A DNA stretch of 64,000 nt, taken from contig OZ024754.1 of NCBI GenBank assembly GCA_964016885.1, forward strand, positions 1,054,001 through 1,118,000, in the 5' to 3' direction. The stretch is from Eledone cirrhosa. Taxonomy: Eukaryota. Below, in pieces: positions 9,204 to 47,885 of this stretch. A program made the translations under genes and the position numbers. Position 1 is the first letter of the stretch; every line of letters begins with the position of its first letter. The notes beneath the pieces were generated by a model, which made no database searches, was not told the DNA's origin, and saw only the letters and a list, made by a program, of their open reading frames with translations.

Positions 9204-9323
9204 GTTTACAATTGCTTCGCTACTCCATATAATATTTCTGGATCAGATGACTATATATCATAATTGATCTGGTTCAGTTGAAAATAATTAACATATTTAA
9301 AAGACAGAGCGGCTCATCGGAAC
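9204..9323 (-). ncRNA. Hammerhead motif, U4C core, GAAA mutated to GAAG
   Basis: Inverted copy of 9428-9547. Confidence 0.55.
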
Positions 9324-9427
9324 TTCAAAGGAATATAACTTAAAATAATGAGAGAATGTTACATAATATAATGTTCACATAATATAATGGAACATTATAT
9401 TATGTAACATTCTCTAATTCCTTTGAA

Positions 9428-9547
9428 GTTCCGATGAGCCGCTCTGTCTTTTAAATATGTTAATTATTTTCAACTGAACCAGATCAATTATGATATAGAG
9501 TCATCTGATCCAGAAATATTATATGGAGTAGCGAAACAATTGTAAAC
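9428..9547 (+). ncRNA. Type-I hammerhead motif, U4C core (CCGATGA), long helix II
   Basis: gtt CCGATGA gccgctctgt...atggagtagc GAAA caattg TA aac. Confidence 0.7.
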
Positions 9548-9907
9548 GGACAATATTATTCTCTACATTCCTTACATCAAACTAAAATATGTTGACAATC
9601 TTTCAATAATGTTTTCCTTGTGAAATGTGTGGTCTTGTTTTGCTTAACTAATGAATATTTCCAGCCCTGAGCACCTAACTTCTGCATGAACCCAGCCACC
9701 TAGCTGCTTTCTACTGCATATTGCACATTGAGCACATGCTTTACGCTTTGGCTTCTAACTAATTCACCAATCTCTCCTCTCATATCTCCTCTCCTATCTC
9801 CATCTCTCTCTTTAAGATTGGTTACTCTTGAACTGTATATATATATATATATATATATATATATATATATATATATATATATATATATATATATATATAT
9901 GTGTGTA

Positions 9908-10537
9908 CTAGCTGAGCTACCCGGTGATTCCCGGGTTGTTTTATTAAAGTTACAATAGTTGACCATTGAAATATGATTGCTGAATTTTAACTAAAGTAGG
10001 AATTGTAGCAGAACATTTATTATTTAAAGCAAATCATGTAGATAAAAATATTATTAGTTTTGTCCAGTAGTGATTTTTTTAAATACTGCTCACTATTACA
10101 GTCAGCATATATAATGCTTCGCACTTGGAAGAATCATTAGGTATGTTGTCAGTGAAAAGGGCATGACCAAATAAATAAATTTAGATTTTATTTATCCTCT
10201 TTTTTGGCACAATCAGACCTCTGAAATTCAAACAAAAGTGAAGGCTATTTTAAAAAGCATAAATAAAATTAAAAAAATAAATTTACCATTGGTTCATGAA
10301 TGAATGAAGAATTTACTTACTCATTTCTGTAATTCAGGAAAGTTTATGTAAGTGTGGTAAATATATACATATATACCAGGAACCAAACTCCCACTGTCAC
10401 TGCCCCCATCTCTCCCGATCTCCCGATCTCCCCATCACTCATTATTATGAACAAATTGGGGCCCACTGGACGCAACACAGCTGGTTTCATCCAGAGGGAG
10501 AAAGAGTGAGGGCTTGAAAGAGATGAAGTGGGAAAGA
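9908..10537 (-). mobile_element. Non-autonomous Helitron-like element
   Basis: Minus-strand 3' end: cccggg aatca ccggg hairpin then CTAG; 5' limit uncertain. Confidence 0.55.
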
Positions 10538-10701
10538 TATATATATATATATATATAATGAAATGACAGGAGGCTGGATTTGTGTAAATCCTTGAAAGGT
10601 TTATTATACTATGATCATTTCAATATATATATATATATATAAATTAATAAAAGCAATGAAATAAAAACAAAGAACAGGTTCATTATATTGAAAAAAATCA
10701 G

Positions 10702-43475: not shown

Positions 43476-44069
43476 CACTATAATCACCGGTACTATAATA
43501 AACAACAAATACTAATACGGTTCTGGTAATACCGGCAGTGAGCTTCCGTTACCTTAGAACATGCCGATAACATGAACACTTTCATAGATAAAATACCATT
43601 GTTGTATTTGTCCTAGCTCTTGACATTATCAGTTTAAATCCTAATGAAGTCAACTTTGCATTTCATCTTTCTGGGGTCGATATAATAAAGTAACAGTTTA
43701 GTTCTGAGGTTGATTTAATCAACTTTGCTATTACCATAAATTTTCCTAAATTAGAAATCAATGGCAATTCAGGTTTATTAACTCCTGTGTATATATTTTC
43801 TGTTCTATCATTGCTCTGAAACGCTTTATTAAAAATGCTAATTTCATGTTTACATATAATTTATTTTGTAATGATTCGGTTTGTTTCCACGTTTTCTTAT
43901 TTTCCAGCTAAATTTTTGAAACTTACAGCAAATGTTGATCTTCATTAAATGTGGAATCCTGTCGGAAATATATGTACAAAACAAGCTCTTAGAAAGCAGT
44001 TGGAGGGCTGGTGCCTACATACAGATACTTTTGCTGAAGTCAACAATAAGAGCATTTCCATGAATTACA

Positions 44070-44238
44070 ATGGAAAAACTTCGGTTGAATTCAACAGTGA
44101 CTATTGATGAATTGAATGCTACTATTAATGACACGAATGGACACAATTTGGGCACGTTTATAAACCCGTTCAATCAAATACATATCAAAGTTACATTTTG
44201 TGTTTTATATTCTGTAATATTCATGTGTTGTGTATTTG
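44070..44238 (+). CDS. TrissinR: Neuropeptide GPCR (trissin-receptor-like), coding exon 1: N-terminus and TM1
   Basis: ATG at 44070; three NxT sequons; hydrophobic VTFCVLYSVIFMCCVF; G|gtaagt donor in phase 1, completing the TM1 GN motif with exon 2. Confidence 0.9.
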
Positions 44239-46514
44239 GTAAGTATTTAAAATTTTATTTTTCCGTTGGTCGTTTTAAAAGTTGGTGAAATATTCAATAT
44301 ATGATTGTTTGTGGAAGACTTACTGCAATAATAAAACTGTTTTATTATATTCATTAGTTTTCAGTTTCATACTTAAAACTCAGTTATTACCGCCTCAAGC
44401 GGTAAAGCACGTTTTTCGACGAGGGAAACAAAATTAGCAATCGACTTGGCAACATTCTATAGCAACTTCTCTGGTCTTATTAAGTTAGAATCTTTTAGGG
44501 GAAAAATGAAACTACCCTATTTTTAGAGTGTAATAAAATATTGTTAATACATTTTTTCCTTTTGCGAAATATATATATAATGAAAAATGTATTGATACAC
44601 TGAATTTTAGTTTTCTTTACTTTTTGTTTATAATCAAAGTAGATGATATGTTGCCTGTGGTAGTATCTGCCGTAGTCTAATTATATAATGCATGGCTGTG
44701 TGGCTAAGGAATTCGATTTGCAATCACGAGGTCCAGCATTTGATTTCCCTGCGTGGCAACTTTCTTTCAGTGGAGAATTGGGCAAATCTCGTCTTTCTGT
44801 AACAAATGTTCTTACTGAAGGTAAGGTAAGGTTGCTAGCATCATGTTCCATCCCTCCTCCTTTCAAAACAGAGCCGGATACCAACCAGGAATTTTGAATT
44901 CAAAGAGGGGGATTTCAATACCCTTGATAGGCGCCCATTTCATGTACTCATTTTCCATAGATTCGTCAGACCCTGTAGTAGTGACCGAACTCATTACCAA
45001 CTACTATAACAAGGAAATAAATGTATCGAATTCAGATTTTCTCTATGCATATGATAATATTTATATAGCACATACAGAAATATCGACTCCATTACTTGAT
45101 ACATCTTTTTACCGACCTCGAAAAGATGAAAAGCAAAATTGACCGCGGTGAAATTTGAGCTCATGGAGCAGATCACAATTCTGTCAGTTGCTGCCTTAAT
45201 ATTATTAAATAATTTCAAACAGAAAAAAAGCAAACATGAAACAAAACAAAAACAGAATAAAAAGTCAGTATTTAAATTACAAAACAATTTACGTTAATTA
45301 TATAAGTTTATCATTGTAGTATCATTTCCAGCATGGAAGTTTCGATATACATGTATGTTTCAATATGTAAATTACACTATAATTGTATGTTCCAATATAA
45401 TTATACAATGATTGTATAGTCCAATTTTATTATATATATATATATATATATATATATATATATATATATATATGTGTGTGTGTGTGTGTATGTGTATATA
45501 TATATATATATATATATATTCAAATATACTTCTAGAAACTTCGACACGTTTCTTAAATTGATGTATAGAACAATAATTATTTTATAAAGTCTGTTTCTTA
45601 GAAATTAGAAGAAACATTATCTTCAATTATATCTTCTAAAAAAGGTAATTTTTGTGTAGGTCACTTAAATATATAGAATAACAACTGTACTGAAAGTTTC
45701 TTTTTTTTTTGCCGATATCAGCGGAAACCTCAACTACTAAAGTAATTGTAATTCAAATATATATTAAGATGTATTTTAATATATTAAGATGTGTTATAAT
45801 ATATTAAGATATATAAAATAATGTAGATATTAAATTAAGGTGAAATAGTGGGGTAAAGGAGCGTTGATTTTCTAGTTTAACTGTGGTTTCTAGAATGAGA
45901 GTAGATAATCATCCCCATTAAAATCACATATTTGGAAAGATGGTGACAAGAAGCTAAACAAAAACACCGACAAACGTTAATTTTGAAATTAGGCGTACTA
46001 TACAGAAATCCGAACGAGCCGCAGCTTGGCCATGAGTGTACCTAGAAATGACCATGCGATATATATATATATACATATATACACGATGGGACCTGCACAC
46101 TTTTTTTCTCCTATTCCTTTCCTATTTTCCCTTTCTTCCCCCCCCCCCCCCCCCGCGGTTCTTCCTCCTTTCCCTCTCTTTCCTTTTCTCTCTCCTTTTT
46201 TCTCCCCCTTTTTTCTCTCTTTCTCTCTCTTTTTCCACCTGGCCTTTTGATTAATAAAAGGCCTCGGGCGCACCCGAATTACACCGATGTCCTGTAATTC
46301 AGCGCCGAAACATCGGTCCAGGAAAGATTTACAGCTGACGATGGAAACTCCTTTCTTCCTTTCTCCTCTTGTTCCGTCCTAACCACCATCCTAAACCTTG
46401 TTTTTAGTAACCACACAGCTCCTTTCGTTTCATAAGTTTTTGTATATATATAAATATATAAATATATATATATATATATATAATATTTATATAGCACATA
46501 CATATATATATATA

Positions 46515-47125
46515 CTAGACCACTCGTGACCTGTTGGGTCACGTTCACCTAAAAAAAATTTTTTAATAATTAAAATATACACAGACATGTATATAATGTG
46601 TGTGTGTGTATATATGTAAATGTGTATGTTCGATTCCTGGACTGGGCGATGCGTTGTGTCCTTGAACAAGACACTGCTCCTTCTACCTGGAGTTGCGACC
46701 GATAGATAGTACTAGCAACTGGAAAGGACAATGGAAACATTGTTTCCTCGGTCCGATTTGATGAAAGTCGATCGATATATATATGTGTGTGTGTGTGTAT
46801 ATATATGTGGGTGTCTGTGATCTATATACACTGTTCATAGACACACACACAACAACAATACCAGCTCTCTCTCTCCATTTTCCTTCTCTGTCTGCTCTCC
46901 TTCTCTCTATGTCTCTCTTTCCCTCCCTCTCTCTGTTTATGAAGGTACCCGGAAAAACTCCATATCTCGGGAACCCCTAGTCCGATTTACGCGAAACTTG
47001 TTTTATTTCATTTGTATTCCCATTTCAGGGTCAACTTCCTTTTAAAGTATGTTCCCATTATGCGCCCTTTTGATGTATTACATTACAGACAAGCAAGCAA
47101 GCACTCACAGAGTTTTAGTAAATAT
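46515..47125 (-). mobile_element. Helitron-like non-autonomous element (SINE fragment nested)
   Basis: Minus-strand 3' end cgtgacc caaca ggtcacg agtggtCTAG. Confidence 0.5.
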
Positions 47126-47199
47126 ATATATATATATATATATATATATATATATATATATATATATATATATATATATATATATATATATATATATAT

Positions 47200-47885
47200 A
47201 GTAATAAGAATATTTATATTTAGATATGTTTGATATAACTATAAATATGGAGGGTAGTACTAAGTACTAGCCGGTTACCGGTATGAAAAAAGGCTCAATG
47301 CAAATTTTCAAGTGTTTTACAGAGCCGAAATACAAAGTGTTAAAACGATCAAATTTTAGTTTAAAACATTTATTTGCTGACAATTGTTTCTTCCAGAGGG
47401 AAGTCTGGAATCATCGGAGCATAGGGAATGTCGAAAGGTGTTACTAAAATCCTAGTCATTTAGAACATTTAGGGTACATAATTGTTGTTAGAGTCATAGG
47501 TAACATGTGGAGAGTCAGGAGTTAAAAAGATGTTCTGCTTGAAAGAACACAATTATAGGCAGCACTGGTTGAAAGTGTAAGAGGTATAAGTGAAAAGCAC
47601 AAGCAAAGAAATACACCGCAAAAAGTTATAAGCAAGGAAAATTGGTGTACAATGCAGGAGTCAATACAGTTAATAAGGCATGTATACGGAAAGAGTTATA
47701 ATGCAGTTGAAATAAACATATTTTGTGTGGGATGTTAAAGCATGTTATAATTGTTATAAATGTTTAAGATAGTGTGCAATTTGTTAGAGAGGCATGTGGT
47801 GCCTTGCATTACACCTTACATAACAAATACCTACATTATCACCACATGCCTAAACTAAAATTTGATCGTTTTAACACATTGTATA
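47200..47885 (-). mobile_element. PLE 3' remnant with a short inverted arm
   Basis: ggctc...gagcc hairpin 47292-47326; hammerhead 47375-47421; about 47851-47883 inverted against 47330-47362. Confidence 0.75.
47375..47421 (-). ncRNA. Minimal hammerhead motif, U4C core
   Basis: Minus strand: tgct CCGATGA ttccaga cttccc tctggaa GAAA caattg TC agca. Confidence 0.75.

Follow-up and report, generated by a model that had tools for sequence, protein, structure and literature searches.

A hammerhead core with C at position 4 as the majority state of a multi-copy repeat family from Eledone cirrhosa, probably of Penelope-like origin

Minimal hammerhead ribozymes of Penelope-like retroelements are the closest described systems for a group of motifs found in a 64,000-nt stretch of the Eledone cirrhosa genome (assembly GCA_964016885.1, contig OZ024754.1, positions 1,054,001 to 1,118,000, forward strand), referred to here as the window. 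In these motifs, the core sequence CUGANGA is changed to CCGANGA, a U to C substitution at core position 4 (U4C), and in one repeat family, called family 1, the altered core is the majority state. As far as the accessible text of the sources goes, the U4C motifs share with Penelope-like minimal hammerheads a short helix I, a small palindromic helix III and type I topology (PMC4209133; PMC8557442), as well as a long helix II and a helix III suited to cleavage of dimers (PMC4209133). The same portions also describe dispersed and close inverted copies, U3-A8 covariants and high variability within one genome, all of which recur among the hammerheads of the window. Moreover, the inverted pair at 9072-9658 has the layout reported, in the available part of PMC8557442, for 5'-truncated inverted Penelope-like copies. 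The core variant described in the accessible text of PMC4209133 is U3-A8, not a U4C family. Family 1 differs from these ribozymes in its unusually long (95 nt), apparently eroded helix II domain, and no open reading frame (ORF) is tied to it here.

Two other mobile systems are comparable in part. The Poseidon element PAc of Anolis is Penelope-like and carries a hammerhead in its pseudo-long terminal repeat (pLTR), which resembles family 1; it differs in its canonical core and in protein-assisted cleavage having been shown (PMC11167929, available sections). According to the same sections, catalytic ribozyme mutants of a Penelope-like element did not lower insertion in vitro, and uncleaved RNA was the main insertion substrate, which provides a precedent for a ribozyme carried as a passenger. 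Non-LTR retrozymes, too, are short, repetitive and non-coding and have type I hammerheads; the accessible part of the preprint argues for their origin from Penelope-like pLTRs (bioRxiv 10.64898/2026.07.22.740005). These elements are defined by head-to-tail tandem arrays of hammerhead units, whereas the window has family 1 only as a solo copy and an inverted pair, which does not fit this definition.

The identical CUGA to CCGA change is known in nature from a citrus viroid-like RNA, four variants of which carry it; in the available text, the authors cite the first case of U4C as not affecting self-cleavage (PMC9608096). In the published natural hammerhead, the change is a minority variant among replicating RNAs whose helices are stable and whose cleavage has been shown, while in family 1 a genomic repeat with weak helices has it as its majority state. 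A literature search, which did not reach most subscription papers, brought up no repeat family described as having U4C in the majority, and the available text of PMC3907566 and PMC6765202 contains nothing on U4C except references. Lunse et al. 2017 may already list U4C in Penelope-like hammerheads. The chemistry, in which U4C is tolerated at lower activity, is already known, and the novelty would lie in a new case of this known variant in a repeat family.

The U4C motifs and the family 1 elements that surround them are as follows.

9207 to 9320, minus strand: family 1 hammerhead copy A, with U4C and a private A14G, forming the left-hand arm of the inverted pair whose centre is near 9381.
9431 to 9544, plus strand: family 1 hammerhead copy B, with U4C, a helix I of 3 bp and a C.A mismatch at helix II pair 3.
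15565 to 15678, minus strand: family 1 hammerhead copy C, with U4C (C4 at 15677), the reference for the contig-allele comparison.
9072 to 9658, unstranded: whole inverted family 1 insertion, with two arms of about 280-310 nt.
15462 to 15770, minus strand: family 1 element surrounding copy C; organism A has it in repeated form, and it also occurs in organisms B, C and D.
36439 to 36549, minus strand: second U4C lineage, with a helix I of 9 bp, a strong distal hairpin (folding z -4.38) and a non-palindromic helix III.
47379 to 47417, minus strand: third U4C lineage, with a helix I of 4 bp, a perfect 7-bp helix II closed by U-A, and a GUC site.

The five loci have the predicted anatomy of type I minimal hammerhead ribozymes. 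All follow the order helix I, CUGANGA, helix II, GAAA, helix III, UH, helix I, apart from C4 and, at 9207, A14G, and the canonical U at position 4 is absent from each of them. An earlier note on this DNA had listed their cores, and every one is present on the hammerhead strand: CCGATGA at 9204-9323 (-), 9428-9547 (+), 15562-15681 (-) and 47375-47421 (-), and CCGAAGA at 36431-36557 (-). Each is followed by helix II, GAAA (GAAG at 9204), a 6-nt helix III insert and UH. The note also spoke of three independent families. Three lineages do carry U4C, but the three copies of family 1 count as one of them, since they are 96% identical in pairwise comparison (236/246, 271/282 and 242/251) and copies A and B together make up a single inverted insertion; the copies thus represent two insertions.

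The state of position 4 at the level of the family was assessed in sequencing runs. The stretch 15440-15770 is present in 16 of the 20 listed runs, with a share of at least 0.2 in four organism labels. One run per label was compared, using contigs at 80% likeness and differences listed from 2%; twelve runs with a share below 0.2 or from the same sample as run X1 were left out, and the repeat 15521-15563, which adjoins the predicted cleavage site (after 15565 on the minus strand), was skipped. The contigs placed numbered 689 in X1 and 37, 10 and 3 in the other three runs. No U4 allele (G>A at 15677) reached 2% in the contigs of any of the four, where depth at 15673, four bases from C4, was 39663, 66, 11.9 and 3.2 and alleles of 2-34% were listed nearby. 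Because the substitution is missing despite this depth and the recovery of neighbouring alleles, family 1 has C4 as its majority state in each of the four organisms, and the possibility raised in the earlier note that it is a minority allele does not hold for this family. Family 1 is multi-copy, with copies biased to the 3' end, as its summed X1 contig depth, which is not a copy number, is about 300,000 at its low-coordinate 3' end and drops upstream to about 23,000. The variants at 2% or more in X1 number 19, with 15 of them in 15604-15669 and four in 15707-15726. G8A is seen in a single contig from X6 and in another from X1.

The scaffold around this fixed C4 appears eroded in folding models. 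In copy B (9431-9544), the helix II domain spans 95 nt, helix III is palindromic and cleavage is predicted after UA; the helix III of copies B and C is a perfect 8-nt palindrome with a self-duplex energy of -6.4 kcal/mol. Family 1 folds less well than its shuffles, with a z of +1.29 and 189 of 200 shuffles folding equally well, in contrast to 36439 (-4.38), 10707 (-4.34) and 47379 (-2.62), and its hammerhead fold lies 5.4-5.7 kcal/mol over the free minimum, compared with 0-3.4 for four U4 controls. Since the helices are eroded, the fixation of C4 does not in itself show a working ribozyme. A coding explanation was considered and rejected, as the AUG frame inside the core stops after 6 codons.

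A relative with U4 indicates the direction of change. In run X4, a contig of depth 2.44 can be aligned by eye with 68 nt of the 3' half of family 1 (15583-15650) at 10 differences. Beyond this match lies a canonical U4 core, whose helix II arm shows about 15 nt of complementarity and keeps the register of family 1. The U4 core and longer helix II arm of this relative suggest a change from U4 to C4. Compared with it, family 1 is altered at core position 4 and, within helix II, at 10.3, 10.8 and 10.9, and every change weakens the helix. Pairing alleles at 10.3 and 10.9 reach 55% and 40% in X6, whereas in X1 they stand at 4% and 7%, so that the lineage dominant in X1 is the more eroded one.

Of the two remaining lineages, the second is accompanied by the trace of a coding element.

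36998 to 37514, plus strand: broken ORF remnant, about 450 nt from the 36439 motif and on the opposite strand.

This remnant is homologous to three proteins (E 9e-18 to 8e-17), two of which have a GIY-YIG domain in Pfam, and the tblastn alignment extends to the start of that domain. By its homology to GIY-YIG-bearing proteins, the remnant is probably Penelope-like, and a physical link to the 36439 motif may be supposed; among the remnants of the window itself, none gave a GIY-YIG match in Pfam. An imperfect inverted-repeat element at 37560-37870 severs the ORF remnant where the endonuclease domain begins. In the 36439 motif itself, the proximal helix II has one junction pair followed by mismatches, and a remote relative at 10707 (folding z -4.34) keeps U4. 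For these two reasons, the motif lends weak support to a permissive position 4.

The third lineage, at 47379, is a candidate of another kind. Its helix III is a perfect 8-nt palindrome (self-duplex -6.4 kcal/mol), and its junction helices of 4 and 7 bp compare with 3 bp and a mismatch at pair 3 in family 1 and with a nearly absent helix II at 36439. From its modelled structure, it appears to be the best candidate for a working C4 ribozyme. The motif is single-copy within the window, and the far end of its insertion, 47230-47890, is marked by one further feature.

47851 to 47884, unstranded: inverted 34-nt copy of the 3' part (47330-47363).

No adjoining ORF was recognised at 47379, and a coding explanation was rejected here too, the AUG frame inside the core stopping after about 15 codons. 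For both 36431 and 47375, U4C could be either a private change or a family state.

The U4C motifs are likely to derive from the terminal repeats of Penelope-like retroelements. With no adjacent ORF recognised, such an origin is suggested for family 1 and 47379 by anatomy. The inverted 5'-truncated neighbour copy, a Penelope-like trait, is seen in the pair at 9072-9658 and in the 34-nt piece at 47851-47884, and the short palindromic helix III is found in family 1 (copies B and C) and 47379 and is missing from 36439.

How far position 4 stands out depends on the other hammerheads of the window, which is AT-rich (GC 0.26-0.41) and dense in microsatellites and broken retroelement ORFs. A descriptor scan that tolerated core mismatches was set against 12 Markov-shuffled windows. 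Motifs with no mismatch occupied 14 loci (null mean 1.25), and one-mismatch motifs with a structure score of at least 28 occupied seven (null mean 0.75), four of them U4C, which places the class of these motifs above the shuffled null; the two-mismatch class did not exceed it. With the scan and grouping by hand, more than 25 hammerhead loci could be sorted into about 16 lineages. The curated count of 16 credible lineages, three with C4 and 13 with U4, omits the two-mismatch class, except for 9207, and the probable noise at 5268, 25124, 52312, 63068, 56053/56102, 56902 and 24190; it retains 20180/22085, 28978, 36090, 15229 and 7405/55696, which lie under or close to the null threshold. Canonical U4 motifs therefore outnumber U4C motifs in the window.

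The earlier claim that descriptors requiring CUGA would overlook the altered motifs is borne out. No U4C locus was matched by Rfam Hammerhead_1 at E<=1. The sole match of that model in the window, 34452-34496, scored 29.1 bits, under the gathering score of 34, and corresponds to one canonical motif.

34459 to 34490, minus strand: short canonical type I hammerhead.

The other Rfam matches, microRNA models driven by microsatellites and all under their gathering scores, were dismissed. Outside the window, a core-pattern scan of viral contigs gave no match, and the 117 loci returned from metagenome contigs were rejected as chance matches, having near-even degenerate bases and mostly lacking helix II.

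Uncompensated core changes in the window number ten. U4C accounts for three, and the remainder are A9C (30001), A9U or a deletion (28978), G8U (2479), A6G (62916 and 15229), A6U (20180), A13C (7405 and 55696) and A14G (9207). A6G is common to two minimal hammerheads about 85% identical, 62916-62947 (-) and 15229-15259 (-); helix I pairs in both of these though their sequences differ. A13C is common to 7405-7434 (+) and 55696-55726 (+), which are 89% identical and belong to a U3-A8 covariant family whose third member, 63489-63518 (-), retains GAAA. As each of these changes is common to diverged copies, core changes other than U4C are also inherited by copying. In simulations, any identical change picked afterwards arises three times among ten events with P 0.09-0.21. 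A modest true excess of U4C is nevertheless plausible, because U4C was known beforehand as tolerated. The possibility, also raised in the earlier note, that other core positions are substituted equally often is hence right in part, with A6G and A13C in two copies each and A9 altered twice, but U4C makes up three of the ten. As for the view that position 4 is relaxed rather than randomly damaged, what stands is that C4 is not private damage in family 1 and that U4C is published as tolerated; what does not is any singular status of the position, given the inherited A6G and A13C elsewhere and a tolerance that is not special to these ribozymes.

The change does create a CpG, as had been stated, and this was offered as support for a relaxed position because it runs opposite to methylation-driven decay. 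The argument was rejected, as CpG depletion in the window is weak (observed/expected 0.77-0.79). A-to-I editing on the ribozyme strand cannot yield U to C, and a T-to-C transition requires no special cause. Octopus transposons are largely unmethylated (PMC9476566). In X1, the CpG next to C4-G5 varies at 34% and 4%, whereas no U4 revertant, which would itself arise by a CpG transition, reaches 2%; the CpGs C4-G5 and C11.1-G12 have no variant at 2%, and that at 10.3-10.4 varies. The invariant pair is consistent with core constraint, yet shows no selected return to U4. Position 11.1, before GAAA, is U instead of C at 13004, 14128, 28439, 28660 and 12645, a change that CpG transition would predict.

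The best explanation, held with a little more belief than doubt, is that a founder copy became fixed for U4C, a mild lesion of known kind, which then spread passively as the element, probably without any need of efficient self-cleavage, was copied. An ancestor with U4 and a long helix II would have given rise to family 1, which may have acquired U4C and lost helix II pairs before expanding. Its copies would have been made in trans by a Penelope-like reverse transcriptase and endonuclease, and any residual cleavage was presumably slow and dimer-dependent, through the palindromic helix III. The slight excess of U4C could reflect a transition at the core position that is cheapest to change. Several findings weigh against this explanation. 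No ORF was recognised beside family 1, which leaves it without a direct tie to a Penelope-like element, and the U4 relative depends on a single low-depth contig. Three occurrences of U4C among ten events, if named in advance, have P 0.003-0.019, and the 47379 motif has intact helices and a folding z of -2.62. All 19 X1 variants lie outside the core, helices I and III and the Watson-Crick pairs of helix II, and the three within helix II each convert a wobble or mismatch into a Watson-Crick pair. Furthermore, viroid U4C is said, second-hand, to retain self-cleavage (PMC9608096, accessible text).

Much of this evidence would fit a position 4 that is truly permissive in Penelope-like hammerheads, where C4 ribozymes cleave well enough to be kept by selection and were fixed independently in several families. 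Such a reading is possible and is put forward tentatively. It accords with C4 being the family 1 majority in four organisms, with the same change in three of 16 lineages, with natural U4C in two viroid-like RNAs (PMC9608096) and with an experiment that selected against ribozyme cleavage, in which none of the escape mutants from 50 plaques was changed at U4 (PMC4075628), the last two as given in the available parts of those papers. However, the family 1 scaffold appears eroded, 36431 lacks a proximal helix II, A6G and A13C are likewise common to copies in other families, two of the three lineages are single copies, and a pairwise mutational scan, in its accessible portion, found low activity for single CUGA-turn mutants (PMC9901934). 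The avoidance of constrained positions by variants (P 0.018-0.13, set by which positions count as assessable) is suggestive only, because unstructured stretches are also invariant. It is improbable that attenuation was itself selected, with a slower ribozyme leaving more uncleaved RNA template and so aiding the expansion of family 1: the far greater abundance in X1 (689 contigs), the lack of a U4 revertant subfamily at 2% and the in vitro preference for uncleaved RNA (PMC11167929, available sections) agree with it, but C4 is also present in organisms B, C and D with few contigs and is not by itself the cause of expansion, run sizes differ, and neutrality accounts for the same data. Private random decay of single insertions in all three cases is very improbable. 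Three identical changes among ten can arise by chance, and A9C, A6U and A14G are private in the window, but the contig alleles refute such decay for family 1 and leave it possible for 36431 and 47375 only. Finally, it is hardly credible that contig building or a reference bias has artificially removed a U4 allele. Contigs do lose rare alleles, and X1 depth dips to 38,500-48,500 over 15656-15679, against 73,000-99,000 alongside; nevertheless, alleles of 2-34% survive at neighbouring positions, a majority U4 is not the path that would be dropped, and single long contigs in X6 and X7 cross 15677 unchanged.

The window holds further hammerheads and one receptor exon. A perfect 580-nt inverted repeat (12948-13527 and 13649-14228) carries a canonical hammerhead in either arm and looks very recently inserted; its relatives lie at 30954, 31159 and 30001. 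The highest structure score in the window (45) belongs to a U3-A8 covariant hammerhead at 50775-50856 (-), whose helix III insert is an 8-nt palindrome. Direct repeats at 20150-20396 and 22055-22300 (90%), each with a hammerhead, enclose a remnant at 21099-21521 that is presumably GIY-YIG-like by its motif; a homolog search with 21168-21518 found nothing, nor did Pfam. At 58255-59346 (+), one long exon encodes a rhodopsin-family seven-transmembrane receptor (Pfam 7tm_1, E 1e-34).

Family 1 offers a natural case of an abundant, probably Penelope-like repeat with a non-canonical hammerhead core as its majority state. Together with its U4 relative and the A6G and A13C families, it forms a comparison set for the role of ribozymes in transposition, and descriptors used for element counts should admit CYGA. 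It is doubtful that a high-copy Penelope-derived family in several related animal species keeps a selected, working C4 hammerhead and that U4C was fixed independently in at least three such families. If this were true, searches restricted to CUGA would be overlooking a class of active or deliberately slowed transposon ribozymes.

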